Of a stretch of DNA of 32,000 nucleotides, positions 1,656 to 24,171 are shown piece after piece; within the stretch, counting starts at the first letter, position 1, and each line of letters starts with the position of its first letter. The notes below the pieces were generated by a model. That model did not search any database. It was not told the origin of the DNA and worked only from the letters and a program-made list of their open reading frames with translations. The DNA comes from Patescibacteria group bacterium. Lineage in GTDB: Bacteria; Patescibacteriota; Minisyncoccia; UBA6257; HR35. The DNA is taken from positions 13,104 to 45,103 of the forward strand of contig JAMCWY010000003.1 of NCBI GenBank assembly GCA_023480925.1. Reading direction: 5' to 3'. The translations under genes and the position numbers were made by a program.

Positions 1656-2678
1656 ATGTCAGAAATAAATATTAAGAATATGGGCGTTGGTATTGTCGGT
1701 GCTGGCTTAATTGGTTGGAGACGAGCGGAAGTAATTAAGGCGTCGAAAAAAGGCAAACTTTTAGTGGTCACAGACGCTGATTTTGAAAAAGCCAAAAAAT
1801 TAGCGGAAAAATATAATTGCCAAGCGTGTCAAAGTTGGTCGGACCTTCTTAAGAAGGAAGACGTAAAAATTGTTATTGTCGCCGTGCCAAATAAATTTGC
1901 CGCGCCAATTTCAATCGCCGCGTTAAAGAAAAACAAACATGTTTTTTGCGAAAAACCGCTTGGCCGAAACGCGAATGAAGCAAAAAAAGTTTTGACGGCC
2001 GTAAAAAAATACAAAAAAGTTTTTAAGGTCGGTTTTAATCATCGTTTTCACGCGGCCGTCGCTCAAGCAAAAAAAATTTTTGACGAAGGCGGGATAGGAA
2101 AACTTATGTTCATTCGCGCTCGATATGGTTACGGCGGCAGGTTCGGGATGGAAAAAGAATGGCGAATGGACAAAAATATTTCCGGCGGCGGCGAACTGTT
2201 GGATCAAGGTGTTCATATTATTGATCTGGTGCGATGGTTCGGCGGCGAACCAAAAAAAGTGTACGGTTTAGTCCAAACCAAATTTTGGCAAACTCAGGTT
2301 GACGATAACGCCTTCGTGATTATGTCGAATGATAATGTTACGGCGGAGTTTCATGTCAGTTCGACTAATTGGAAGAATATATTTTCCTTCGAAATTTTCG
2401 GAGACAAAGGTTATTTGGAGATAAGCGGCAAGGGTGGTAGCTACGGTGAAGAAATTCTTATTTGGGGCAGAAGAAGAAAAAAATTCGGAGTGCCAAAAAT
2501 AAAAATTTTTAAATTTGGAAAAGATATTAGTTGGGAGCGAGAATGGTTAAATTTTTTTAACGGAATAGTCAAGAAAACTAAGATTAATGGTGATACCAAC
2601 GACGGTTATGCCGCCAATAAAATCGTTGAAGCAATTTATAAATCAGCTATAATGAAAAAAGTCGTTGATTTAAATTAA
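1656..2678 (+). CDS. Gfo/Idh/MocA-family NAD(P)-dependent sugar oxidoreductase.
   Basis: The N-terminus has the dinucleotide fold IVGAGLIG. The CEKPL (EKP) motif and the 340-aa length are typical of the family. Confidence 0.75.
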   Translation: MSEINIKNMGVGIVGAGLIGWRRAEVIKASKKGKLLVVTDADFEKAKKLAEKYNCQACQSWSDLLKKEDVKIVIVAVPNKFAAPISIAALKKNKHVFCEKPLGRNANEAKKVLTAVKKYKKVFKVGFNHRFHAAVAQAKKIFDEGGIGKLMFIRARYGYGGRFGMEKEWRMDKNISGGGELLDQGVHIIDLVRWFGGEPKKVYGLVQTKFWQTQVDDNAFVIMSNDNVTAEFHVSSTNWKNIFSFEIFGDKGYLEISGKGGSYGEEILIWGRRRKKFGVPKIKIFKFGKDISWEREWLNFFNGIVKKTKINGDTNDGYAANKIVEAIYKSAIMKKVVDLN

Positions 2679-2698
2679 CAGTTTATAATTTTTAGATT

Positions 2699-3406
2699 AT
2701 GAACGATTTAAAAATAAAAATATTCGGCGACGGCGCGGATAAGTCAAGTATGCTTGATTTGTATCAGAAGCCGTACATTAAAGGTTTCACCACTAATCCG
2801 ACGTTAATGAGAAAGGCCGGCATTGAAAATTATGAAGCGTTCGCCAAGGATATTCTTTCTTTAATTAAAGATCGTCCCGTTTCTTTTGAGGTTTTTTCCG
2901 ATGAGTTTTCGGAAATGGAAAGGCAGGCTAAAATCATAGCGAGTTGGGCTAAAAATGTTTATGTCAAAATACCGATTACTAACACGAAAGGCTTGAGTTC
3001 TTTTGAAGTTGTAAAAAATTTATCCAATGATGGAATCAAATTGAACATCACGGCGATTTTCACTCCAAAACAAGTTAAACATATCGCCGCCGCCTTGGCC
3101 TCGGGCGTGCCATCGATTATTTCCGTTTTTGCCGGTCGAGTCGCCGACACCGGCGTTGATCCAGTGCCGTTAATGAAAGAATGTAAAGAAATATTGAAAG
3201 ATTATCCGGACGCCGAACTTTTGTGGGCTAGTCCGAGAGAGCTTTTAAATATATTCCAGGCTGATCAGATTGGTTGTGATATTATTACGGTTACACCCGA
3301 TGTCTTAAAGAAACTTGATAGTGTTGGCTATGATTTGGAAAAATTTTCCATTGATACGGTCAAAATGTTTTTTGACGACGGTCAGAAAGCCGGTTATAAA
3401 CTTTAA
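2699..3406 (+). CDS. Transaldolase / fructose-6-phosphate aldolase family protein (short TalC/FSA type).
   Basis: It carries the GFTTNPTL motif, a Schiff-base lysine context (VYVKIP) and is 235 aa long. Confidence 0.8.
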   Translation: MNDLKIKIFGDGADKSSMLDLYQKPYIKGFTTNPTLMRKAGIENYEAFAKDILSLIKDRPVSFEVFSDEFSEMERQAKIIASWAKNVYVKIPITNTKGLSSFEVVKNLSNDGIKLNITAIFTPKQVKHIAAALASGVPSIISVFAGRVADTGVDPVPLMKECKEILKDYPDAELLWASPRELLNIFQADQIGCDIITVTPDVLKKLDSVGYDLEKFSIDTVKMFFDDGQKAGYKL

Positions 3407-3429: not shown

Positions 3430-4032
3430 ATGGACAATTACATCGATTCTTATTTCGAAGAAGTAAAAAAAATAGCCGATAATATTGATAAAAGCTCCAT
3501 TAAAAAAGTTATTGATATTTTAAAAAATATTCGATCTAATAGCGGTCGTTTGTATATTATTGGCGTTGGCGGAAGCGCTGGCAGCGCTAGTCATGCCGTC
3601 AACGATTTTAGAAAGTTGGCTGGGATCGAAGCTTACGCGCCAACGGATAATGTTTCCGAGTTGACCGCGAGAACCAATGACGAGGGCTGGCAAACTATTT
3701 TTTCCGAATGGCTTAAAGGAAGCAAATTAAACAATAATGACGTTATTTTAGTTTTATCCGTTGGTGGCGGCAACGAAGAAAAGAATATCAGTCCGAATAT
3801 AGTCGAAGCTCTTAAGCTGGCGAAAGATGTCGGCGCTAAAATTATCGGCATCGTCAGCCGAGACGGCGGCTACACTAAAAAAGTCGCTGACGCCTGCGTT
3901 CTTATCCCGGTTGTCAATGATAAGGCAATAACGCCTCACGCCGAATCATTTCAGGCTGTTGTTTGGCATTTAATTGTTTTCCATCCGGATTTTCAGTTGA
4001 ACTCGGGTAAATGGGAATCGATCAAAAAATAA
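3430..4032 (+). CDS. gmhA: SIS-domain sedoheptulose 7-phosphate isomerase (phosphoheptose isomerase).
   Basis: It has the SIS loop GVGGSAGSASH, is 200 aa long and lies next to gmhB. Confidence 0.7.
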   Translation: MDNYIDSYFEEVKKIADNIDKSSIKKVIDILKNIRSNSGRLYIIGVGGSAGSASHAVNDFRKLAGIEAYAPTDNVSELTARTNDEGWQTIFSEWLKGSKLNNNDVILVLSVGGGNEEKNISPNIVEALKLAKDVGAKIIGIVSRDGGYTKKVADACVLIPVVNDKAITPHAESFQAVVWHLIVFHPDFQLNSGKWESIKK

Positions 4033-4598
4033 AAATTCAGAAAAGAGCGGTTTTTCTTGATCAAGATGGAACCGTGATTAAACATGTAGATTTACTTATT
4101 GACGTTAAAGACATTAAAATACTTCCCGGCGTCGTGACCGCCATTAGACGACTTCGTCAATTAGGTTTTTTGGTTATAGTGATTACGAATCAACCAGTAG
4201 TGGCAAGAGGATTAATTTCTGAAAATGGCGTAAAAGTATTAGAAAAAAGAATTTCTTGGTTGTTATCTCAAAAGGGAGTTCTTGTTGACGATTTTTTCTT
4301 TTGTCCTCATCATCCCGAGGCAACTTTGAAAAAATATCGGGTGAAATGTCAATGTCGAAAACCGGCGCCAGGAATGATTTTAAAAGCTGCCAAGAGATAC
4401 AACATAGATTTGAAAAACAGCTTTATGGTGGGCGATGCCTTAATAGATAGCGTTACTGGCCATCGAGCCGGGGTTAAAACTATTCTTGTCAAAACCGGTC
4501 CGGGTCATTCCAAATTGGACAAAATATATAAAGAAGAAAAGCCAGATAAAGTCGTTAAAAAAATTTACGAGGCGGTAAAGCTTATATGCGAAAAATAA
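4011..4598 (+). CDS. gmhB: D,D-heptose 1,7-bisphosphate phosphatase (HAD-IIIA).
   Basis: It has the HAD motif I DQDGT, the Zn-binding insert CPHHP...CQCRKPAPGM and a GD motif. There is no other start codon before motif I, so it overlaps gmhA by 22 nt. Confidence 0.8.
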   Translation: MGIDQKIKIQKRAVFLDQDGTVIKHVDLLIDVKDIKILPGVVTAIRRLRQLGFLVIVITNQPVVARGLISENGVKVLEKRISWLLSQKGVLVDDFFFCPHHPEATLKKYRVKCQCRKPAPGMILKAAKRYNIDLKNSFMVGDALIDSVTGHRAGVKTILVKTGPGHSKLDKIYKEEKPDKVVKKIYEAVKLICEK

Positions 4599-5317
4599 AT
4601 CAAGCTGTTATTCTTTGCGCTGGTCTGGGGACGCGCCTGCGTCCGCTAACTGACAATATGCCGAAACCGATGGTGCCAATTCTGGGTAAGCCGATGCTTT
4701 TATGGAATATAGAGCAGTTTAAGAAATACGGCGTTATTAATTTTAAAATAAATTTATATCATCTTCCCGACGTGATTAAAAATTATTTCGGCGATGGCTC
4801 TAAATTTGGAGTAAAGATTGAATATAGTTTTGAAAAAGAAATTTTAGGCACGGCCGGCGCCCTGGGCGAATTTGACAAAAAGCTAGATGATTTTTTCTTT
4901 TTGATTTACGGCGATGTTGTTAGTTTTATTGATTACAATAAGATGGCGGTTAAATTTTTTGGGTTGGAAAAACCTATTGGCATGCAGCGAGTTGGGCTTA
5001 CGTCAAATTATGGCGACGCGAATGTGGCCGAACTCGACCACAATAATAAATTTGTGACTGTATATATAAAGCCTCATTCGGAAATTTATTCTAATGCGTA
5101 TCGAATGAGGGGTTCATTTATTTTCAGTAAAAAAGTCTTGAATTATATCGAAAAAGGAAAATGTTCAGAAATAAGTAAAAATTTGTTGCCCAAACTTATT
5201 GAAAATGATGAAAATTTTTACGGCTATGAGTGTGATGAATTTTCAAAGGGCGTGGATACGATCGATAAATTAAATGAGGTCGAAGATTACATCAGAAATA
5301 ATCATATGATTATATGA
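4586..5317 (+). CDS. hddC: Sugar-1-phosphate nucleotidyltransferase, heptose-1-phosphate guanylyltransferase-like.
   Basis: The N-terminal signature is CAGLGTRLRPLT...KPMVP. It overlaps gmhB by 13 nt. Confidence 0.7.
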   Translation: MRKINQAVILCAGLGTRLRPLTDNMPKPMVPILGKPMLLWNIEQFKKYGVINFKINLYHLPDVIKNYFGDGSKFGVKIEYSFEKEILGTAGALGEFDKKLDDFFFLIYGDVVSFIDYNKMAVKFFGLEKPIGMQRVGLTSNYGDANVAELDHNNKFVTVYIKPHSEIYSNAYRMRGSFIFSKKVLNYIEKGKCSEISKNLLPKLIENDENFYGYECDEFSKGVDTIDKLNEVEDYIRNNHMII

Positions 5318-6153
5318 ATGATATTGGTCTTTTTAGGGTGACAGTGCTTATAGCTACTTGGAATCGAAAAGACTTGATTGGAAAAGCGATAGAGAGTGTT
5401 TTGCAACAGTCTTTTCCATCGTGGGAATTAATTGTAATAGACGATGGTTCCACGGATGGCACAGAAGAAGTGGTTGCTAAATATATTTTTCGTGATTCAA
5501 GAGTGAAATATATTAAGATTGATCATATTGGAAGGATTGCTGTGGTCTCTAATCGTGGTTTACGATTGGCGGTCGGCGATTATATCGCCATATTGGATGA
5601 TGATGATGTTTGGATAGATGAAGATAAATTAAAAAAACAGGTTGATTTTTTGGATAAAAATCAACTTTATGTTGGTTGCGGCGGCGGCATGATTGGAGTT
5701 GATCGGGCTGGCAACGGAATGTTTAGATCTTTAAAACCTGAGAGTGACGCTGAAATAAAAAAAAGAGCTTTGTGCGCAAATCCAATGATTAATTCCGCGA
5801 CGATGTTTAGAAGAAGTATCGCTGAAAAAATTGGATTTTATGATGAAACCTTATCGCAGTTCGCCGATTGGGATTTCTGGTTGAAAATTGGAACGATGGG
5901 GAAGTTGTATAATTTTCAGGAATACTTCGTGTTATATCTTGTCTGGGATAAGAGCAGTTCTTTTACTAAACAAAAAGAAAACGCGCGATCGGCGTTAACA
6001 ATAGTGAAAAAATATAGAAAAATTTATCCAAATTTTAAAGTAGCCTTCGTCTTGGCTGTTTTATATAGAAGTTATACGTTCATACCGGCAAGCGTTAGAA
6101 GATTTTTGAATCCAATATTTTCCATTGCCAAAAAAAAAATTTTTTCTAAATAG
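5314..6153 (+). CDS. Family 2 glycosyltransferase (GT-A fold).
   Basis: Motifs present are LIATWNR, IDDGSTDGT and DDDD (DxD). It has an ATGA overlap with the upstream gene. Confidence 0.8.
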   Translation: MNDIGLFRVTVLIATWNRKDLIGKAIESVLQQSFPSWELIVIDDGSTDGTEEVVAKYIFRDSRVKYIKIDHIGRIAVVSNRGLRLAVGDYIAILDDDDVWIDEDKLKKQVDFLDKNQLYVGCGGGMIGVDRAGNGMFRSLKPESDAEIKKRALCANPMINSATMFRRSIAEKIGFYDETLSQFADWDFWLKIGTMGKLYNFQEYFVLYLVWDKSSSFTKQKENARSALTIVKKYRKIYPNFKVAFVLAVLYRSYTFIPASVRRFLNPIFSIAKKKIFSK

Positions 6154-6526: not shown

Positions 6527-6640
6527 ATGAAAGTTTCCGCCGTGGTTAAAAAAAGATGTTTAAAGTGCAAGGTCGTCCGTCGAAAAAAACGTTTGTACGT
6601 GATTTGCTCGAACCCTCGGCATAAACAAAGACAAGGTTAA
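6527..6640 (+). CDS. rpmJ: 50S ribosomal protein L36.
   Basis: It is absent from the ORF track because it is shorter than 60 aa. It runs from ATG 6527 to TAA 6638-6640 and encodes [37 protein letters not shown], with the CxxC...C...H zinc knuckle. It lies directly after infA. Confidence 0.9.
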
Positions 6641-6709
6641 TGGCAATCGGGACAAGTTCGATTTTGTTTTGGCTAAGGTTTTAAAAATAGAAGCGGCTGG
6701 CTTTAATTA

Positions 6710-7543
6710 ATGAGAAGAAGTCTGATTTTTTATTTAAGCTTGGCGGCGATCGCCATTGTTTTGTTATTAAGTTTTTTAATTTTTTATCTTGAGCAAAAGG
6801 CCGCTCGAAGTTTGGCCGAGAACGGCGTCAACAATAAAACCGGATTAACCAAAGTTGATTCGAGCCAGGCTCAAAAAAATCCGACGGTCGTTCAGGTTAA
6901 TTTTCAGACCGATGATGGCGTTAATATTGTCGGCGATTATTACGATAATCCAGCGGCAAAGTTCGTCGGCATTGTCGCGCCGATGTTTCGAGCCGATCGA
7001 AAAGCTTACGCTGATTTTTGCCGCCGGCTTCAAGCAAATGGTTATAGCGTTTTGGCGATCGATTGGCGCGGTCAGGGCGCGAGCGTTGATTCGTCCAAGG
7101 GCAAACTTAATTATCAAAATTTTAGTCAGGCTGATTTTCAGAACGCGATTTTTGATTTGGAAGCGGCGAGTAAGTTTTTACGCGGCAAAGGCTTCCAAAC
7201 TAATAACCAATTTTTAATCGGCAGCGGCTTGGGCGCGAACTTAGTTTTGAAATTTTTAGGCGGCAATAATAACTTCCGCTTGGCTGTTTTGGTCGCGCCG
7301 CGATTGAATGACTCAAGAGTCAAAATTGAATCTCTGATTGATCCGGGTCTTGGCCCGAAATTAATTTTGGTCGTTTCCGCCTCGGACAGCGCCGCCGTCG
7401 AGGCAGTGACGTTTTTGAACCAGAAAATGCCAGGTAGCCAAACAATAATTTATCCAAGCGGCAATGATAGCCGAGGCCAATTTTTGGACGATCCCGGTTT
7501 ATCTGATAAAATTATAATGTGGCTTAAGACTAAGTTGTTCTAA
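6710..7543 (+). CDS. Membrane-anchored alpha/beta-hydrolase-fold protein.
   Basis: It has an N-terminal TM helix (LIFYLSLAAIAIVLLLSFLIFYL) and alpha/beta-hydrolase-like spacing. The nucleophile elbow reads IGSGLG, which is not a canonical GxSxG. Confidence 0.5.
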   Translation: MRRSLIFYLSLAAIAIVLLLSFLIFYLEQKAARSLAENGVNNKTGLTKVDSSQAQKNPTVVQVNFQTDDGVNIVGDYYDNPAAKFVGIVAPMFRADRKAYADFCRRLQANGYSVLAIDWRGQGASVDSSKGKLNYQNFSQADFQNAIFDLEAASKFLRGKGFQTNNQFLIGSGLGANLVLKFLGGNNNFRLAVLVAPRLNDSRVKIESLIDPGLGPKLILVVSASDSAAVEAVTFLNQKMPGSQTIIYPSGNDSRGQFLDDPGLSDKIIMWLKTKLF

Positions 7544-10594: not shown

Positions 10595-11299
10595 ATGGCA
10601 GTGGAGTTTAAACCGGATATCATTTTAACAATTTTTAACTGGCCGATTTCAAATTCGTTGTTGGCGAGTTTTTTGTCGCTTGGTTTGATTTTCCTGACAT
10701 TGTTTATTTTTAAAAAAAGATTAAAAGAAGTGCCAGGTCGATTTCAGGCGGCGATTGAAATTATTTACGAAGGTTTTTTTGATTTTTACAACGATATTCT
10801 CGAATCAAGCAAACAAACAAAAGTTTTCTTTTCTTTTTTGTTCGCTTTTTTCCTTTACGTCATTGTAAGCAACTGGATTGGTCTGTTGCCCGGCATTGGC
10901 AGTCTGGTTGTTCATTGGGGCGGTCAGACCGTGCCGCTTTTTCGTTCGACTTATTCGGATTTGAATATGACCCTTGCCTTAGCTTTGATTTCCGTTATCG
11001 GCGTCAATATAATCGCTATTTTTTATCTGCGCCGCTTTTATTTCAAAAAGTGGTTGACAGCATTGGCGCCGTTTGAAATTTTTTCGGAATTTGCTAAAAT
11101 AATATCTTTCTCGTTCAGATTATTCGGGAATATTTTTGCTGGCGATGTTCTTTTAATCGTAATTTTTTCGTTGAGCGGCTATATTTTACCGGTGCCGTTT
11201 ATAGGTTTGGAAATTTTTGTCGGTTTTATCCAGGCTTTAATTTTTACCGCCTTAACCGCAATTTTCTTAAAAGTCGCATTAATTCAAACATCGCATTAA
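10595..11299 (+). CDS. atpB: F0F1 ATP synthase subunit a.
   Basis: It is a polytopic membrane protein with the conserved Arg region SFSFRLFGNIFAG, and is the first gene of the atp cluster. Confidence 0.9.
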   Translation: MAVEFKPDIILTIFNWPISNSLLASFLSLGLIFLTLFIFKKRLKEVPGRFQAAIEIIYEGFFDFYNDILESSKQTKVFFSFLFAFFLYVIVSNWIGLLPGIGSLVVHWGGQTVPLFRSTYSDLNMTLALALISVIGVNIIAIFYLRRFYFKKWLTALAPFEIFSEFAKIISFSFRLFGNIFAGDVLLIVIFSLSGYILPVPFIGLEIFVGFIQALIFTALTAIFLKVALIQTSH

Positions 11300-11302
11300 T
11301 CA

Positions 11303-14050: not shown

Positions 14051-14380
14051 ATGAATTTTAAACAGTATCAAGAAAAATCTCGTCGGACCGCGATTTATCC
14101 CCGTCGCGGCAAAGATTTTATTTATCCGGCTCTCGGTTTGGGCGGCGAGACGGGCGAGGTTTTGGATAAGATTAAAAAAATCATCCGAGACAAAAATTAC
14201 AAAGTTGATCAGTTGGTTCGATCGGAATTAGAAAAAGAACTGGGCGATGTTTTGTGGTATCTGGCTCAATTGGCGACGGAATTAAAATTATCTCTTGACC
14301 AAATCGCGAAAACAAATTTAAAAAAATTAAATTCACGTTTAAAGCGAGATCAAATCAAGGGCAGCGGCGATAATCGTTAA
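14051..14380 (+). CDS. MazG-like nucleoside triphosphate pyrophosphohydrolase (small all-alpha type).
   Basis: It is 109 aa long and carries metal-binding motifs GGETGEVLDKIKK and ELGDVLWYLAQLA. It starts 11 nt after atpA and ends 4 nt before atpG. Confidence 0.75.
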   Translation: MNFKQYQEKSRRTAIYPRRGKDFIYPALGLGGETGEVLDKIKKIIRDKNYKVDQLVRSELEKELGDVLWYLAQLATELKLSLDQIAKTNLKKLNSRLKRDQIKGSGDNR

Positions 14381-16895: not shown

Positions 16896-18635
16896 TTAAA
16901 TCAATCGGTAACTAATTTCTTTGATGACTTTGATATTTTTTAGTTTGATCAAAATTTTTTCCGTTTTTTCTTTATTATCGAAATTGATCTTAATTTTTAT
17001 TTGGGCGAAATGACCGTTTGGGTTTGAGTGGATTTCTTTGATGTTGGTTTTGGTTTGGGCGATGATGTCGGAAATGTTTTTAATCAAGTTAATTTTGTCT
17101 TCGGCCAGGATTTTTATCTCAGCCAGCCGTTCGCGTTTGAATGGATCGTCTTGGCGAAGCTTGTTTCTGATTTTCTTTTTAGCTCGGTCGGTTTTGATAA
17201 AACGAATCCAGGATTCCGATGGCCGCCGCGTTTTTTGAGTCAAAATTTCAACAATATCGCCGGATTGGAGAATTTGATCGAGATTGACGATTTTGTCGTT
17301 GACCCGGGCGCCGACGCAGTGGTTGCCGATTTCGGTGTGAACGGCGTAAGCGAAATCGATTGGCGTTGACCCAGCCGGCAGATCGAAAACTTCGCCCTTG
17401 GGCGTGATCGTAAAAATTCTGTCTTTAAAAAAATCAATTTTAAGCGATTGGAGAAAATCATCTTGGCTGTCAAATTTATTTTGCCAATTTTTCAATTGTT
17501 CAATCCAATTTAACTCTTTCCGGTCGGCAAAAATCGTTTTGGCTTTTAAATAATTTTTGCTTTGTTTCGCTTGGCTATAAAACCAGTAAGCGGCAATACC
17601 GTTTTCATTTTCTTCGTGCATCTCGAGCGTTCGAATTTGAAATTCGGTTGGTTTGTTTTCTTCGCAGATGACGGTCGTGTGAATGCTGCGATAGCCGTTT
17701 GGTTTGGGCAGGGCGATGTAGTCTTTAATCCGGCCGGGCAGAGGCGGCCAAAGTTTGTGGATAAAACCAAGAACGGCATAACACTCTTCGACTGTCTGAA
17801 CGATAATTCGAACCGCGACTAAATCGTAAACTTGGCTAAGGTCCATATCGTAACGGAGAATTTTTTTGTAAAGACTGGCGTAACGTTTGGCTCGAGTATC
17901 GATTCGGATTGGTTTGATTTTATTCTTTTCCAATTCCGTCCCGATTATCTTTTTGACATTTTCAAGGTATCTTTCTCGTTCTTGAAATTTTTCTTTGACA
18001 TTTTCTTTCAACCATTTGGACTCGGTTGGGTGAAGATAGGGGAAGGCGAGATCGTCGAGTTCGCCGGCCAGGTTACTCATACCCAGACGGTAGGCGAGAG
18101 GCGAATAAATTTCGTTTGTTTCAAGAGCGATTCGTTTTTGTTTGTTTGGCGCCAGAGCATTGAGGGTTTTGAGATTGTGGAGCCGGTCGGCCAGCTTAAT
18201 GAAGACGACGCGAATGTCTTCGCTCATGGCCAAAATCATTTTTTTTAAAGTTTCGATCTGAGCTTGGTTGCCGCGGTATTTGATTCGGCTGATCTTAGTC
18301 ACGCCATCGACAAGAAAAGCGATCTCATCGCCGAATTCTTTTTTAATCCGTTCCAAAGAAATGTCGGTGTCTTCGACGACGTCGTGTAAGAGCGCGGCGG
18401 CGGCAGTGGCCAAGTCTAACTGCCACTGGCTAATCTTTAAAGCGGTCTGGAAGGCGTGGTTGAAATAAGGTTCGCCCGATTTTCTTTTTTGGCCACGGTG
18501 GGCTTCTTGGCTGAAGGTGAAAGCTTTTTTAATTAATTCCAATTCCGTTTCATTTAATTGGCAATATTTCTTGATCGCGCCAATCAATTCTTGAAACTGG
18601 TTTGAATTTATTTTTCCATCTATTTTGGCCGTCAT
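16896..18635 (-). CDS. Bifunctional RelA/SpoT-family (p)ppGpp synthetase/hydrolase, compact form of 579 aa.
   Basis: It has an HD hydrolase domain (HRGQKRKSGEPYFNH...LLHDVVEDT), a synthetase core (YDLVAVRIIV, GYRSIHTTV, EFQIRTLEMH), a TGS domain (ITPKGEVFDLPAGSTPIDFAYAVHTEIG) and an ACT-like tail. Confidence 0.9.
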   Translation of the reverse strand: MTAKIDGKINSNQFQELIGAIKKYCQLNETELELIKKAFTFSQEAHRGQKRKSGEPYFNHAFQTALKISQWQLDLATAAAALLHDVVEDTDISLERIKKEFGDEIAFLVDGVTKISRIKYRGNQAQIETLKKMILAMSEDIRVVFIKLADRLHNLKTLNALAPNKQKRIALETNEIYSPLAYRLGMSNLAGELDDLAFPYLHPTESKWLKENVKEKFQERERYLENVKKIIGTELEKNKIKPIRIDTRAKRYASLYKKILRYDMDLSQVYDLVAVRIIVQTVEECYAVLGFIHKLWPPLPGRIKDYIALPKPNGYRSIHTTVICEENKPTEFQIRTLEMHEENENGIAAYWFYSQAKQSKNYLKAKTIFADRKELNWIEQLKNWQNKFDSQDDFLQSLKIDFFKDRIFTITPKGEVFDLPAGSTPIDFAYAVHTEIGNHCVGARVNDKIVNLDQILQSGDIVEILTQKTRRPSESWIRFIKTDRAKKKIRNKLRQDDPFKRERLAEIKILAEDKINLIKNISDIIAQTKTNIKEIHSNPNGHFAQIKIKINFDNKEKTEKILIKLKNIKVIKEISYRLI

Positions 18636-20208: not shown

Positions 20209-20281
20209 GCCCCCATAGCTCAATTGGCAGAGCAACAGCCTTTTAAGCTGGTGGTTGGAGGTTCGATTCCCCCTGGGGGCA
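20209..20281 (+). tRNA. tRNA-Lys (anticodon UUU), no encoded CCA.
   Basis: A hand-folded cloverleaf gives acceptor GCCCCCA/TGGGGGC, D arm GCTC/GAGC, anticodon stem ACAGC/GCTGG with loop CTTTTAA, a T arm with TTCGATT and discriminator A. Total length is 73 nt. Confidence 0.9.
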
Positions 20282-20282
20282 C

Positions 20283-20330
20283 AAAAACAGAACTCAACGT
20301 CTTTTTTAAAGCCGTTGAGTTCTGTTTTTG
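20283..20330 (+). terminator. Strong intrinsic terminator after tRNA-Lys.
   Basis: AAAAACAGAACTCAACG (20283-20299) pairs perfectly with CGTTGAGTTCTGTTTTT (20313-20329), followed by a T-run. Confidence 0.85.
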
Positions 20331-20375
20331 TGTATTTATTGTACTAAATTAGAACCTATTCTCAAAATCGGTGAA

Positions 20376-20800
20376 TGAATCAGCTCCACCACCGCTTCGC
20401 TCCGCTCGGCAACCTCGAAAGAAAAACACCCTTTCCTTTTTCATAAAAAATCGGGCGCGCGCAAATCAGAAATACAACAAGGAGTGTTTTTCTTTCGGGG
20501 GGGTCTGCCCTCTAAGTATTCGGGCAGTGCGACGGGGCTACAATGCGGGCGAGGCAAAGCAAAACTATTTTTGCGGGAGGAATACTCTTGGCGGAATTTA
20601 AAATGTCTTGGCGGGACTTGGCGGAAACGGGAACCCGAGCCAGCACAAAAGGCGTGGGCGAAGTCAATCTTTCTTCGAATTCAGAATTGTTGTCATTATG
20701 CCAAAAAGTTTGGACTTATTTCCAGTAGAATCCCAACTGATGCGCCACGCACGGAACGGAGCGCGCGGGGGAGAGGTTTGGGGAGGAATCCGTGCGGTCT
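20376..20800 (+). ncRNA. Candidate structured non-coding RNA or regulatory island of unknown family.
   Basis: My hand count of 20401-20820 gives about 50% G+C, with G in excess on the + strand. There is no credible ORF. Long-range complementary segments include a 17-bp helix between 20413-20429 and 20484-20500. The strand is assigned only from one G-U pair. See findings. Confidence 0.3.
20587..20624 (+). repeat. Three direct copies of CTTGGCGG with helical phasing.
   Basis: Copies lie at 20587-20594, 20607-20614 and 20617-20624. Start-to-start spacing is 20 nt and 10 nt. Confidence 0.8.
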
Positions 20801-20830
20801 TTCTGTTGGATTTTTTCAGTGGGGAGGGAG

Positions 20831-20839
20831 TGGTATAAT
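20831..20839 (+). promoter_or_regulatory. Extended -10 promoter element (TGgTATAAT) for the surface-protein operon.
   Basis: TG lies at 20831-20832 and TATAAT at 20834-20839, preceded by a T-run at 20811-20816. The first ATG downstream is at 20853. Confidence 0.5.
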
Positions 20840-20852
20840 GCTTGTATAAGAT

Positions 20853-20912
20853 ATGTATCTAAACTTTAGCCAAAACCAAGCGCGACACAAGAGAGAGAGA
20901 GAGAGAGAGTAA
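20853..20912 (+). CDS. A 19-codon ATG-initiated leader ORF that contains the (AG)10 tract. It is probably the out-of-frame 5' end of the downstream surface-protein gene.
   Basis: From ATG 20853 it encodes MYLNFSQNQARHKRERERE and stops at TAA 20910-20912. Removing 2 nt in the AG tract fuses it in frame to the ORF that is open from 20870 through 23704. Confidence 0.4.
   Translation: MYLNFSQNQARHKRERERE
20890..20909 (+). repeat. Perfect (AG)10 dinucleotide microsatellite.
   Basis: Read directly from the sequence as aGAGAGAGAGAGAGAGAGAGt. Confidence 0.95.
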
Positions 20913-20959
20913 AACGAGCCCGCAGGGTTTGCTTTAACGCCAAGCAATCTTTTGAGCTA

Positions 20960-23704
20960 TTGGTCATAGCCAGTTTTCTTTTGTTTCTTTCTTCTCTTTT
21001 ACCGCAAAAGGCGCAGGCTGCTAACTCGTGGCTTGGGAACTGGCAATATCGCGAACAAATTACTTTTAACAATTCTTCTTCAACCGAGAATTTGGTTAAT
21101 TTTCCGGTACTGGTCAAACTTGATTCAACCAGAATCAATTACGCCAATACTCAAAACGCGGGCCAAGACATCAGATTTACCGACTCTGACGGAACAACAC
21201 TTTTACCTTATGAAATAGAAAAATGGGATAGCACAGGTACCTCTACTATCTGGGTCGAAATTCCTCAAATAAATGCTTCTTCAAGCACGGATTATATCTA
21301 TATGTACTATGGCAACACCTCTGCCATAGATGGCCAAAATAAAACTGCGGTGTGGAATTCAAATTATGTCTTGGTTCAGCACTTAGGAGAAACATCCGGT
21401 ACCACAACATTTGATTCAACTGCTAATGCAAATAATGGTACAAAAGTTTCGGCTACCGACCCAAATCCTTCTTCATTGGGACAGATAGACGGGGCTCAAA
21501 GTTTCAATGGAGTAAACGATTTTATAAAAATTGACAACAATGCAAATATTGACAACATTACAGTAATAACTGTTAGCGCATGGGTGAAGACTAACAATAC
21601 AACTAGCCAAGCTATTTGGACATCGTATGGAGCACCACATGGATATCAACTTTGGTTGCAAGCGGGACAGGTAGCTATGTGGAGTGACAGCGGAACGGTA
21701 AATTCAGGTGTTTTTGTGGCTGATGGACAATGGCATTATATAGTCGGAGTTTTCGATGGTACAAATGTGTATATTTATGTTGATGGTACACAAAGAGCTT
21801 CCGGCGCAGGAACAGTCACAGCGAATACCGGAAACAATCAAATTGGAAACCAATGTGTTGGTGCAGGATATACTTCCTGCTCTTTGTACATGAACGGCCT
21901 AATTGATGAGCTTCATATCTCAAACACTGTCCGTTCAGCCGCTTGGATTGCGGCAAGTTATAAATCAGAAACAGATAATTTTAACACTTTTGGCGCTGAA
22001 GAATTAAGGCCAAACTCTCCGCCAAACACACCGATTAATTCTTCGCCTACGAATGGTGCCACTCTCCAATTACTTACTCCGACTTTAACCGCATCGGCGT
22101 TTTCCGATCCGGACGCAAGCGATACTAATGCGGCAAGCAACTGGCAGGTTGACGACAACTCTAATTTTCTTTTCCCGGAATGGACGCGAACCAGCACAAG
22201 CGGCGAAACATCCACCACGGTCAATGCCGCCAACGGTGTTTTTGCCAACAGCTTAGCCGGGAAAAGCGAACTGGCGCATAACACGGTTTATTACTGGCGG
22301 GTGCGCTACCAAGATTCGTCTGGTGCGCTTAATAGCTGGTCGTCATATTCAACTAGTACTACCTTCACCACCAATCTTATACATACGCCGACCAATTCCT
22401 CGCCGGCAAATGGTATAACGATTACTACCTTGACTCCAACGCTTTCCGCCTCGGCTTTTTCCGATGATGAACCAGGGCATACGCAAAGCGCGAGCGAATG
22501 GCAAATTGATAATGATATAAATTTTGCCAGTCCTGAATATGATTCCGGCGCCACATCTAGTCTTACCTCGCTAACAGTTCCTTCCGGAGCACTACTTAAC
22601 GGTTCTCATTATTTCCAGGTTCGATATCAGGATTCCGGAGGCCAATGGTCTTCTTATTCTGCTCCTACCTCGTTTTATATTGACACTGATACCGGAGAAT
22701 ATCTCCTGCAGCCAGTTGGCTGGAATCAAACTTACAATCTCGGCGACACGGCGCGTTTTACTCTTCAAGTGCTTGCGAGAGATGCAAATGGCGGATTTGA
22801 TCCAGTAACTCCGGACAGCATACCAATCTGGCGTTTGCGCTATTGGGACGGCGCCACTTGGCAGGAATTGGTTTCGGCAACTAGTATGACTCCTCTTGCC
22901 GCGTCGAGCACTTATGAAGCGACCTATGTCATCCCCAGCGATGCTGCTTGGACTGGCAGGGAAGTAACGCCGATGTTCTACGCGACCGTAAACGACGTGC
23001 CGACATCATTGACGCGTGAAATTGAAATTGTCAGTTCCCCGGCGCAAGTGGTGATTAATAACATCACTAACAATACTGTTCCTAATATCACCGCTAATAT
23101 TACAATTACAAACGAAGGCACCGCCGCTTTTGAATACACCTACGACTATTGCGTTGTTGTTTCTATTATTGACCAGTGTGGCGGCGCTGGTAACATCGCT
23201 TACAGTTCAGCGGCTAAATTAATCCAGCCGAGTCAAAACTTTATTACCAATCTAACGCTCAATGTGCCAAATCCAGGCAATTATTTTTTTAAAACCTCGG
23301 TTTGGTGGTCAAATAAAAGTTCAAACGCAAGCCGGTCTTTTACGGCGGCCGCGGCGGCTACTTCTAGTCCTTCTTCGAATAGTAGCTCCGTCGGTGGGGG
23401 CGGAGGCGGCGGCGGAACCGTTTGGAGCGGCAATTTGACGGCATCTAGCTCCAGCCAGGTGACTAATTCAGCCGGTTCAACTAATTCGTCTTTTGTCGCC
23501 GTCTGGGAAGCGATCTACACTTTTTCTCAACGTTTAAATAGGCTTGAAAACCGCGTTGATGTTCTTGAAAGCAAGATAAAAAAATTGGAAAATATCAATC
23601 AGTCAAATTATTCTTCGGTTTATCAACCGCAACCAAGTTATGTCCCGTCGTCTCAACCAACTCTGCCCAAGATCAATCATATATTTAGAATTAGACTGAA
23701 TTAG
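20960..23704 (+). CDS. Large secreted surface protein. Its parts are a signal peptide, DUF2341-like and LamG/concanavalin-like domains, two Fn3-like modules, a beta-rich region, a Ser/Ala/Gly linker with a G8 run, and a coiled-coil tail.
   Basis: With TTG 20960 the N-terminus is MVIASFLLFLSSLLPQKAQA/ANSW. The DUF2341-type pattern is WQYREQITFNN...NFPVLVKL...DIRFTD.DGT.LPYEIEKWD...IWVEIP...IYMYYGN. The LamG pattern is DGQWHYIVGVFDG.NVYIYVDG...GLIDELHISN..RSAAWI. The true start may be ATG 20853 after AG-tract slippage. Confidence 0.75.
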   Translation: MVIASFLLFLSSLLPQKAQAANSWLGNWQYREQITFNNSSSTENLVNFPVLVKLDSTRINYANTQNAGQDIRFTDSDGTTLLPYEIEKWDSTGTSTIWVEIPQINASSSTDYIYMYYGNTSAIDGQNKTAVWNSNYVLVQHLGETSGTTTFDSTANANNGTKVSATDPNPSSLGQIDGAQSFNGVNDFIKIDNNANIDNITVITVSAWVKTNNTTSQAIWTSYGAPHGYQLWLQAGQVAMWSDSGTVNSGVFVADGQWHYIVGVFDGTNVYIYVDGTQRASGAGTVTANTGNNQIGNQCVGAGYTSCSLYMNGLIDELHISNTVRSAAWIAASYKSETDNFNTFGAEELRPNSPPNTPINSSPTNGATLQLLTPTLTASAFSDPDASDTNAASNWQVDDNSNFLFPEWTRTSTSGETSTTVNAANGVFANSLAGKSELAHNTVYYWRVRYQDSSGALNSWSSYSTSTTFTTNLIHTPTNSSPANGITITTLTPTLSASAFSDDEPGHTQSASEWQIDNDINFASPEYDSGATSSLTSLTVPSGALLNGSHYFQVRYQDSGGQWSSYSAPTSFYIDTDTGEYLLQPVGWNQTYNLGDTARFTLQVLARDANGGFDPVTPDSIPIWRLRYWDGATWQELVSATSMTPLAASSTYEATYVIPSDAAWTGREVTPMFYATVNDVPTSLTREIEIVSSPAQVVINNITNNTVPNITANITITNEGTAAFEYTYDYCVVVSIIDQCGGAGNIAYSSAAKLIQPSQNFITNLTLNVPNPGNYFFKTSVWWSNKSSNASRSFTAAAAATSSPSSNSSSVGGGGGGGGTVWSGNLTASSSSQVTNSAGSTNSSFVAVWEAIYTFSQRLNRLENRVDVLESKIKKLENINQSNYSSVYQPQPSYVPSSQPTLPKINHIFRIRLN
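22028..22680 (+). repeat. Tandem duplication of an Fn3/Ig-like module inside the surface-protein CDS.
   Basis: Unit 1 starts TPINSSPTNGATLQLLTPTLTASAFSD...YYWRVRYQDSSG..NSWSSYS. Unit 2, starting at 22385, reads TPTNSSPANGITITTLTPTLSASAFSD...HYFQVRYQDSGGQWSSYS. The repeat is diverged at the DNA level. Confidence 0.65.
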
Positions 23705-23706
23705 AG

Positions 23707-24138
23707 ATGAAAAAATTTATCGGTTCAGTTTTTAAACTAAAATTAAACGATGTCGTTATTTTGTTTTTATTGTTTGCGTTGGTTCTAAGTAATTTGATTT
23801 TGACTATTCAGGTTTTTGAAAATTTAAATGAAATTAAATTCATTCAGGCGAACTTGAATCAAGTTAAAAAAAATAACCAGATTTTAGAATTCGATCGGAT
23901 TCGAGTTGAAGACGCGGCCAATATTCTTTTGGCGATTCAGGATTATTACTACTCGAATCAGGCCTTTCCTAATAATCTCGAAGAATTAAAAAAACAAGGC
24001 TACCTTGATTCAAAAGCGGAGTTATCAGATCCTCAAACGCACAAATATTATTTTTATAAAAATCGCGGTAACGATTTTGTCTTTTGCGTTTGGTTGTCCG
24101 ACAAAGTTAAGGGCGTTAACGTCAGCGCTTGTCACTAA
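23707..24138 (+). CDS. Membrane-anchored protein with a type IV pilin/pseudopilin-like globular domain.
   Basis: It has an N-terminal TM helix (VVILFLLFALVLSNLILTI). The following AANILLAIQDYYYSNQAFPNNLEEL...LSDPQTHKYYFYK...FVFCVWL matches the common pilin-fold pattern (YP..L..L....DP....Y.Y). No G/FTLIE prepilin cleavage motif is present. It starts 3 nt after the upstream stop. Confidence 0.5.
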   Translation: MKKFIGSVFKLKLNDVVILFLLFALVLSNLILTIQVFENLNEIKFIQANLNQVKKNNQILEFDRIRVEDAANILLAIQDYYYSNQAFPNNLEELKKQGYLDSKAELSDPQTHKYYFYKNRGNDFVFCVWLSDKVKGVNVSACH

Positions 24139-24171
24139 TTAGACGAGAACCAGATAAGACGTACGCTAATC

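Follow-up and report, generated by a model that had tools for sequence, protein, structure and literature searches.

A probable relic of a recombinase-linked repeat element beside a tRNA-Lys gene in a Patescibacteria genome

Inversion switches controlled by serine recombinases are known from Salmonella (Hin/hix) and phage Mu (Gin/gix); large serine recombinases (LSRs) are classically integrases, and their attachment (att) sites share only a short core. Here we examine an island at positions 20340-20830 of a 32,000-nt stretch of Patescibacteria DNA (the window; GenBank assembly GCA_023480925.1, contig JAMCWY010000003.1, 13,104 to 45,103), which an earlier note made from the sequence alone had proposed to be a large structured RNA beside a tRNA-Lys gene. 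The island is probably a lone, internally rearranged relic of an LSR-linked recombination module that is widespread in Patescibacteria. Its parent element, of about 330 nt, carries helices P1 to P6. In complete loci of the family (genome stretches denoted by L numbers) the element forms long, near-identical inverted repeats (IR-A) around variable cassettes, joined to an LSR gene whose 3' end forms a second inverted repeat (IR-B).

The complete loci resemble the Hin and Gin switches in that inverted repeats flank a segment and the recombinase gene lies inside or beside the invertible segment; the cargo open reading frames (ORFs) resemble, by eye only, surface or restriction-type functions of the kind common in phase variation. 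They differ in the enzyme, an LSR of 515-575 aa with Recombinase and zinc-ribbon domains instead of an invertase of ~190 aa, in the length of the repeats (99-433 bp rather than 26-34 bp) and in their arrangement, since the coding 3' end of the recombinase itself serves as one repeat and two invertible segments adjoin; inversion is here deduced, not observed. Recombinase-linked guide RNAs (the IS110 bridge RNA, IS1111 seekRNA and TnpB omega RNA) provide a second parallel, since here too a conserved structured element adjoins a recombinase gene and in one state lies directly 3' of it, overlapping the coding end. No variable guide loops matching the flanking DNA were seen in the element, however, and LSRs recognise DNA through their own domains. 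Structured interspersed repeats are known as pneumococcal BOX, Neisseria Correia elements and miniature inverted-repeat transposable elements; like these, the element is a modular conserved intergenic repeat with strong hairpins and outward promoters and is prone to internal deletions, but its copy number appears low (one or two copies per fetched locus), and it stands in long inverted pairs around cargo and is linked to an LSR, not to a DDE transposase. With the RNAs GOLLD and ROOL the island shares its large size, G+C enrichment, scarcity of ORFs, proximity to tRNA genes and linkage to variable DNA, whereas the element unit is smaller, forms inverted DNA repeat pairs and is absent from viral contigs.

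The Hin and Gin switches are reviewed in references cited by PMC7672463, in which invertons and epigenetic invertons, consisting of inverted repeats and an invertase, were found by repeat and read-orientation analysis. The present loci share with invertons the inverted repeats around genes, the adjacent recombinase and long repeats that may include coding sequence; the described invertases are mostly tyrosine recombinases (PMC7672463), whereas here the enzyme is an LSR. The same survey contains only two to three Saccharibacteria loci, none of the LSR/IR-A type (PMC7672463). The literature searched on LSRs, invertons and structured RNAs in Patescibacteria yielded no paper linking invertons or LSRs to this group and nothing relevant to the element family. 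The family architecture appears to be a new variant of recombinase-controlled invertible DNA. If inversion is real, it would be a phase-variation mechanism for tiny-genome organisms that depend on host surface interactions, and LSRs, enzymes that attract interest for genome engineering, would be put to an unusual use.

The island and its homologues

The copy of the element in the window is composite (Table 1). It comprises the 5' two-thirds of the element and, separately, its 3' end; between them, 182 nt stand in for profile positions 213-255 and hence for the 3' strand of P5. P3, P4 and P6 are retained. In the register of the family, P6 is formed by 20762-20769 with 20789-20796 (8 pairs including 2 G-U) around the loop GGAGAGGTTTGGGGAGGAA (20770-20788); the 8-bp helix that had been drawn between 20748-20755 and 20789-20796 does pair, and its 3' strand lies in P6, but its family partner strand is 20762-20769. 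The centre of P3 is inverted relative to most members (orientation 73 vs 3) and matches L098 in reverse complement. With the family hidden Markov model (HMM) the window copy scores about 135 bits, compared with 270-336 for intact copies, and in the core it shares a median identity of 67% with the other copies, which among themselves reach 73%. Other internally deleted derivatives of the element are found in L228 and L230.

The end of an LSR gene (module 2) has taken the place of the 3' strand of the P5 helix. Residues 11-61 of the ORF at 20543-20728 are identical at 39 of 51 positions (76%) to the C-terminus of the L223 LSR (E 5e-25), and 13 of 21 positions are identical to the LSR of L107. 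The fragment is a pseudogene stump because it represents the extreme C-terminus only, without the Resolvase, Recombinase and zinc-ribbon domains, and no LSR gene was found in the 32-kb window beyond these 51 codons. The ORF translations of the island had been dismissed as nonsense, which does not hold for 20543-20728, a real gene fragment by its BLASTP match to the LSR C-terminus; a decayed protein gene, the alternative named in the earlier note, is thus present at 20573-20728, though not in the rest of the island, which is mostly non-coding. A metagenome scan with the module 2 core (20580-20745) gave 11 loci. Module 2 is the 3' end of the LSR ORF in L220, L223, L225, L227 and L230, and in L223 the LSR stop is immediately followed, in the same orientation, by the element; these loci overturned the idea that module 2 is a promoter or leader of an always divergent LSR. 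The junction of module 2 with P6, as seen in the window, was not found in JGI metagenome contigs. Three CTTGGCGG repeats lie inside the stump (20587-20626). A pattern of three CTTGGCGG units matched in viral contigs only unrelated tandem repeats in high-GC phages.

The sister strain (L004/L005) has an aldolase gene 99% identical to that of the window and, by blastn, 97.7% identity across 11 kb on the left side and 7.8 kb on the right, and contains 61 unrelated bp in place of window 20295-24160; the island therefore belongs to a strain-variable segment beside tRNA-Lys, of which it forms the left edge. By contrast, contig JAMCTP010000026.1 of GCA_023381135.1 is identical to the window over 901 aligned bases around the island, and two same-strain Logan contigs break at the edge of that segment. 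A second copy was sought with the family HMM and nhmmer in the 32-kb window and in the sister-strain loci, and none was found; with a single element copy in 32 kb, the window lacks a flanking inverted-repeat pair. We infer that the switch in the window is dead and that the relic at most supplies flanking promoters. What had been read as a large RNA would thus be a dead, scrambled repeat, together with the remnant of a pseudogene, bordering a surface-protein segment specific to the strain.

Homologues of the island were not reached through synteny, which was a dead end because the nearest relatives, L009 and L007, have no island homologue. The aldolase gene, used as an anchor across GTDB genomes, gave no close relative, and neither the locus of the nearest aldolase relative (L009, 59%) nor that of the nearest DUF2341 relative (L007, 60%) holds an island homologue. 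In L007 this closest DUF2341 homologue (2198-3074, 60% identical) has another genomic setting: it follows HicA/HicB toxin-antitoxin genes and precedes a 2,546-aa Peptidase_S74 protein, with no element copy. The successful probe was a spurious 121-aa ORF of the island (20484-20849), compared with 1.84 billion protein representatives. It gave 11 matches, the best 62-68% identical (E 1e-15 to 1e-21), all of them nonsense ORFs rich in W, R and C, with unrelated flanks and with the conserved stretch read in differing frames; among the contigs so found, L098, L099 and L100 reveal the modularity of the island.

The family was collected from species-representative genomes with the exact 20-nt P4 pattern (CTGCCC/GGGCAG stem-loop), which gave more than 119 genome stretches, nearly all labelled Patescibacteria and spread over many classes. 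Nhmmer searches with the island matched about 110 loci of the candidate phyla radiation over window positions 20341-20600 (E to 1e-29; 1e-41 for L099), which establishes conservation outside the source genome. All genomes in which the element was found, over a hundred of them at species level, carry a Patescibacteria label or were binned to that group. No match to the P4 pattern occurred in 2.9 million viral contigs (IMG/VR), and none to the island by blastn in phage and plasmid collections. The family is in neither Rfam nor the literature searched; an Rfam scan of 18 family loci returned tRNAs alone, and three intact copies scanned at E ≤ 1 gave nothing over the element.

The intact element and its complete loci

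Intact copies are about 330-370 nt long in the family alignment and contain, from 5' to 3', an opposite-strand promoter-like pair, P1 to P6 and a T-rich tail. P1 is the one long-range helix that does not form a local palindrome (for example AAGCCCCGCCAC/GTGGCGGGGCTT, AAGCCCCACGCA/TGCGTGGGGCTT and GTTCCGCCAC/GTGGCGGAAC), P2 a weak hairpin and P3 a near-palindrome of ~88 nt. The P5 hairpin stem varies by type (TCGGTTTTGCGAAAA/TTTTCGCAAAACCGA, CGAAGTTTTGGCAAA/TTTGCCAAAACTTCG and CGAGGCAAAGCAAA/TTTGCTTTGCCTCG), and P6, whose 19-nt loop GGAGGGGTYTGGGGAGGAA is invariant, occurs with four types of stem, all of them fully complementary. Downstream and neighbouring ORFs are oriented at random relative to the element, which rules out a role as a 5' leader; no rRNA lies near any copy, ruling out an rRNA operon or processing stem, and a TCGAACC block at first considered a tRNA 3' fragment is better regarded as a promoter spacer. 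A further conserved block, AAATTGAGAAAAAATTAAATTCATGTTAGTATAGTTGTGAGGGTTAGTTTCAACGCTCAT, with a -10-like box (TATAGT/TATAAT), is found immediately within the element's cargo edge in the unrelated loci L107 (~4590-4700, minus strand), L138, L170 and L202. In L230 a perfect 52-bp palindrome (TTTGCCGAAGAATGCAACCCGCGCGCGGGTTGCATTCTTCGGCAAA, ~7316-7367) stands beside an element deletion derivative with P1/P2 fused directly to P5.

Self-blastn of the loci revealed two kinds of inverted-repeat pair. IR-A pairs, formed by the element, are 299-433 bp long and 95-100% identical and surround 2-5 kb of cargo; IR-B pairs, formed by the LSR 3' end, are 99-173 bp long and 97-100% identical and flank the LSR gene body (L107, L133, L140, L126, L131 and L146). 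IR-B either adjoins the inner copy of IR-A or shares 4-24 bp with it. Both kinds are listed in Table 1 for four loci; IR-A pairs alone were found in L110 and L139 and IR-B pairs alone in L131 and L146, and L140 holds a second LSR with its own IR-B pair. The LSRs of L107, L133 and L140 contain Resolvase, Recombinase and Zn_ribbon_recom domains. By eye, the cargo comprises small membrane-like proteins, a methyltransferase-like ORF and transporter-like genes.

Table 1 Features of the window and inverted-repeat pairs of four complete loci.
Sequence	Feature	Position	Strand	Basis or remark
Window	tRNA-Lys(ttt), left neighbour	20209-20282	+	ARAGORN; Rfam tRNA 67.1 bits; also in sister strain L004/L005
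Window	Hairpin after tRNA-Lys, 25-nt arms 96% complementary	20280-20332	+	Repeat search; 3' arm inside strain-specific segment
Window	Strain-variable segment, 3,866 bp: island, DUF2341/LamG gene, 143-aa ORF	20295-24160		blastn vs L004: identity ends 20294, resumes 24161
Window	Outward-facing sigma-70-like promoter at element 5' edge: TTGAGA, 16 nt, TACAAT	20338-20365	-	Promoter scan, 10/12 matches
Window	Element 5' two-thirds: P1, P2, P3, P4, P5 5' strand	20372-20578	+	Family HMM positions 8-212, 119.6 bits, E 1e-36
Window	P1 5'-strand remnant, pairs with 20534-20539	20382-20387	+	6 contiguous pairs vs family median 10 (mode 12)
Window	P3 long hairpin (17-bp helix of the earlier note), 22-nt arms at 86%	20413-20500	+	Repeat search
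Window	P4 stem-loop CTGCCC / 11-nt loop / GGGCAG	20505-20527	+	Invariant in collected family
Window	Orphan P5 5' strand CGAGGCAAAGCAAA; partner TTTGCTTTGCCTCG (present in L099) missing	20550-20563	+	Alignment, family HMM
Window	LSR pseudogene stump (module 2), last 51 codons and stop	20573-20728	+	BLASTP
Window	Promoter-like site within LSR stump: TGGAAA, 18 nt, TG-CATAAT	20695-20724	-	Promoter scan
Window	Element 3' end with P6, then T-rich tail	20761-20817	+	Family HMM positions 256-319, 15.4 bits, E 4.6e-5
Window	Extended -10 TGgTATAAT just beyond element tail	20832-20840	+	Direct sequence reading
Window	DUF2341/Laminin_G_3 surface-protein gene (LamG)	20960-23704	+	Pfam; variable-segment cargo
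Window	143-aa ORF	23707-24138	+	Pilin-like by eye alone, no Pfam match; variable-segment cargo
L107	IR-A pair	1599-1897 / 4699-4997		100% identical
L107	IR-B pair	4994-5117 / 6597-6720		100% identical
L133	IR-A pair	1059-1463 / 3812-4216		99.5% identical
L133	IR-B pair	4193-4365 / 5825-5997		97% identical
L140	IR-A pair	2079-2511 / 5717-6149		99.8% identical
L140	IR-B pair	287-406 / 1967-2086		100% identical
L126	IR-A pair	454-856 / 5224-5627		97.8% identical
L126	IR-B pair	5624-5757 / 7242-7375		97.8% identical

Intact loci look like two adjacent invertible segments, and we infer that they are probably LSR-driven double inversion modules, in which the LSR would act like a Hin-type switch and invert the cargo segment as well as the body of its own gene. 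Inversion of this kind would keep the repeat copies within one genome near-identical and would cause assemblies to end where IR-A meets the cargo. Where an LSR start lies near the element (13 of 128 copies) it is always on the 5' side and the opposite strand (13/13), further copies carry the LSR 3' end, and divergent LSRs accompanied by an orphan copy of their own C-terminus beside the element occur in L098, L100, L226, L107, L133 and L140. In L223 and L230 the LSR and the element point the same way; L220, L225 and L227 show only an LSR end overlapping module 2. Inverting the LSR body between the copies of IR-B would give rise to these two orientations. Some 25 independent assemblies stop 36-51 nt beyond the P6 loop, at the cargo-side edge of IR-A, and few at its 5' edge, as expected from cargo inversion or from cargo polymorphism in the population. 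Contigs ending at the cargo-side edge include L102, L106, L114, L136, L137, L151 and L154, as well as L161, L165, L168, L177, L196 and L217.

Several points weigh against inversion by the LSR, or against the window copy being its lone relic. Inversion was not itself observed, and near-identical repeats also fit recent duplication or gene conversion. IR-A is conserved beyond the needs of recombinase half-sites, its core being 73-89% identical in nucleotides where the LSRs are 41-45% identical in amino acids; the element type is uncorrelated with the LSR type, and 108 of 128 copies have no LSR start within the fetched locus. The nested helices of IR-A, in which stems change and loops are fixed, hint at a role of folded RNA or single-stranded DNA that the inversion model leaves unexplained. 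The search for a partner copy and an LSR covered the 32-kb window, and either could exist elsewhere in the genome. Finally, family members divergent in P4 were missed by the exact-pattern collection.

Structured RNA, palindromic DNA and integration

The features read from the island's own sequence are weak evidence for a structured RNA. The G+C content given for 20401-20820 was reproduced exactly (210/420, 50%; G 120 vs C 90; 60-nt lines 42-60%); the 32-kb window averages 40.8%, and 50% is reached by just 3% of its 420-nt windows, the others all being coding. Four mutually overlapping plus-strand ORFs in three frames (20371-20601, 20484-20849, 20543-20728 and 20608-20838) and a depletion of plus-strand stops (in-frame stops 1/2/6, vs 5/6/6 on the minus strand) were likewise found as described, and the reported lack of minus-strand ORFs is true above 51 aa only, as minus-strand ORFs of 31, 38 and 51 aa are present. 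Coding is excluded in the island outside the LSR stump because substitutions are spread evenly across codon positions, indels are of 1, 2, 4 and 5 nt and the four ORFs have no Pfam match, so the island is, as had been thought, non-coding across most of its length. All five helices of the earlier note pair exactly as claimed, including the G-U at 20415/20498, but those of 6, 7 and 8 bp are individually at chance level, because the numbers of perfect helices of at least 6, 7 and 8 bp (28/7/3) match those of dinucleotide shuffles (29.1/7.6/2.1). The sole unusual helix is the long hairpin, with 14 Watson-Crick pairs compared with a shuffle mean of 8.5 (shuffle maximum 14). Folding of the whole island (20340-20830) is no better than chance, with a minimum free energy (MFE) of -157.4 kcal/mol vs -151.0 ± 7.1 for shuffles (z -0.91), and the minus strand gives z -0.76 vs shuffles.

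The Rfam search that the earlier note had suggested matched no family to the island, even at permissive E. At gathering scores the 32-kb window contains two tRNAs and nothing else, and at E ≤ 10 the segment 20283-20980 gave hairpin noise alone (best 27.7 bits vs a gathering score of 90). The remark that signatures of RNase P, tmRNA, SRP and 6S are missing agrees with the Rfam 15 scan, which includes also HEARO and OLE and is matchless over the island. The suggested likeness to GOLLD or ROOL fails, since neither the window nor any of 21 family loci matched a covariance model of these RNAs.

At the level of the family, by contrast with the single sequence, compensatory changes exist, as seen in tests of P1, P3 and P5/P6 and with a structure derived from one member. 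That structure, of L120, was placed on a structure-blind MAFFT alignment of 34 copies, where 82.9% of cells pair (77.8% in shuffles), double-change cells number 175 (75.7 in shuffles) and the covariation score is 0.182, a value reached by 0 of 500 shuffles (shuffles 0.106; slid-partner controls 0.05-0.10). P3 contains the covarying pairs CG/AU, UA/CG and GC/AU, the outer pairs of P1 covary across the family, and the flanks of P6 pair with themselves over a mean of 8.3 consecutive pairs, compared with 2.8 when swapped between copies. P4 is uninformative, being invariant in a family that was collected with it as the search pattern. Indels in P5 and P6 spoiled the consensus that RNAalifold drew from the raw MAFFT alignment, and the anchor-based flank tests and the named structure took its place. 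Three helices of the earlier note correspond to family helices, namely the long hairpin (P3), 20505-20510 with 20522-20527 (P4) and the strand 20789-20796 (in P6); the proposed 7+4-bp closing helix (20392-20404 with 20757-20768) has no family counterpart, its 3' strand lying in the window-specific loop expansion. Covariation of these helices would fit a folded RNA and would equally fit co-evolving palindromic DNA sites. Counts of G-U and A-C show no strand preference (174/136 in P3, 16/7 in P6 and 23/62 in P1), and P4 of L223 has A-C on the plus strand.

The family element could be, or encode, a structured RNA of ~330 nt, derived for example from the 3' untranslated region of the LSR gene and acting on the recombinase or together with it, with the window holding a decayed copy; we consider this unlikely, although much in the family is consistent with it. 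Covariation extends over several helices, on an alignment blind to structure and above both shuffles and slid controls, the stems of P5 and P6 vary round fixed loops, in P6 with self-pairing above cross-pairing, the outer P1 pairs covary, a T-rich tract follows P6, the element of L223 comes right after the LSR stop and runs in the same direction, and the element is more conserved than the LSR protein. Each covarying local hairpin is, however, also a DNA palindrome, and half-sites bound by a dimer would co-vary alike. The G-U/A-C counts disagree among P3, P6 and P1, the only promoter with both hexamers conserved faces away from the element, the centre of P3 flips among copies, orientation to neighbouring genes is random and Rfam gives no match. 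A more specific form, in which the element is a new Patescibacteria-specific structured RNA from the LSR 3' side, needed for or regulating inversion of the LSR cassette, and the window copy its fossil, seems to us quite unlikely; if true, it would give an RNA partner to a recombinase family thought to work by protein-DNA recognition alone, and a cofactor of RNA or folded DNA would suit the element's nested covariation and its extreme conservation. An RNA reading is a minority possibility for the family and is unlikely for the window copy, in which the P1 pairing and one P5 strand are lost and the HMM score is low, so that a functional RNA of the source genome is not supported.

That the island represents a large non-coding RNA gene, intact and functional, beside a tRNA and comparable to GOLLD or ROOL as the earlier note had it, is highly improbable. 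Its G+C richness, few plus-strand stops, position next to tRNA-Lys and conserved P3, P4 and P6 would suit such a gene, but a sister strain 97.7% identical lacks the island, its fold has a z-score of only -0.9, the closing helix that had been proposed lacks conservation, no Rfam family matches at E up to 10 and the module 2-to-P6 junction is missing from the JGI metagenome contigs; with P1 degraded, the P5 3' strand lost and a pseudogene stump between two element pieces, a single RNA domain of ~490 nt is not what the island contains. Nor does the family, with its long inverted repeats round cassettes beside an LSR, have the genomic setting of a housekeeping RNA gene adjoining tRNAs. Integration instead of inversion would make the element the att-region end of an LSR-integrated island near tRNAs, and the 3.87-kb segment of the window such an island with its integrase end deleted. 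The segment is indeed strain-specific and next to a tRNA, a tRNA lies within ~250 nt of the element's 5' end in about 13 of 60 loci, the modules of L107 are bounded by tRNA genes and integration is the classic activity of LSRs. Two-site integration, however, leaves direct and not inverted repeats, and repeats of 300-430 bp at up to 100% identity are unlike att sites with their short core; the tRNAs next to the element differ widely in identity and occur on either strand, the junctions between window and sister strain represent a replacement without target duplication, and the element is absent from viral contigs, all of which makes integration very unlikely. A relic of an LSR-linked inversion module therefore remains the reading that we prefer for the island.

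Promoters, surface-protein genes and further observations

The strong terminator that had been placed at 20283-20330 exists as a hairpin (20280-20332), but a terminator scan did not call it as an intrinsic terminator. At the other end of the island a promoter -10 had been noted, and an extended -10 can be read there; it is absent from the output of the promoter scan because no -35 accompanies it, and is likely the promoter of the DUF2341 gene. A TTGAnA / 16-17 nt / TAnAAT pair comparable to that at the 5' edge of the window copy is present in several family subgroups (5' alignment blocks, by eye). L098 has TGGTATAAT, read from its sequence, at the position matching the promoter-like site within the LSR stump.

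Upstream of the DUF2341 gene, a short ORF (MYLNFSQNQARHKRERERE) runs from an ATG at 20853 through a (GA)10 tract (20890-20909) to a TAA at 20910, and the frame of the DUF2341 ORF (ORF start 20960) is open upstream to 20870. With one GA unit fewer, the two ORFs would be fused and a basic n-region added to the signal peptide. This arrangement points to slipped-strand phase variation or to an assembly error.

In L009, 160 nt right after a tRNA-Lys(ttt) gene (11126-11300, also 10900-11050) form a multi-branch fold closed by GGCGUGGUGGCGGAGG/CCUCGCCACCGCC and followed by a U-run (MFE -84.7 vs -59.7 ± 4.8 for shuffles, z -5.25). The sequence is not homologous to the island and has no Rfam match, and may be an unrelated tRNA-linked structured RNA. 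The IMG/VR contigs L013, L017, L025, L041, L044, L061 and L065, and likewise L072, L076, L081, L085, L090 and L095, carry arrays of a 10-bp tandem repeat (GGTACTTGGC), several of them at contig ends. Each array is followed by similar CACGGTGCTGGAC-like sequence, unrelated to the island.

Elsewhere in the window (14051-14380 and 16896-18635) the ATP synthase operon contains a MazG-like ORF between the alpha and gamma subunits and an opposite-strand relA/spoT-type gene that parts the beta subunit from epsilon.

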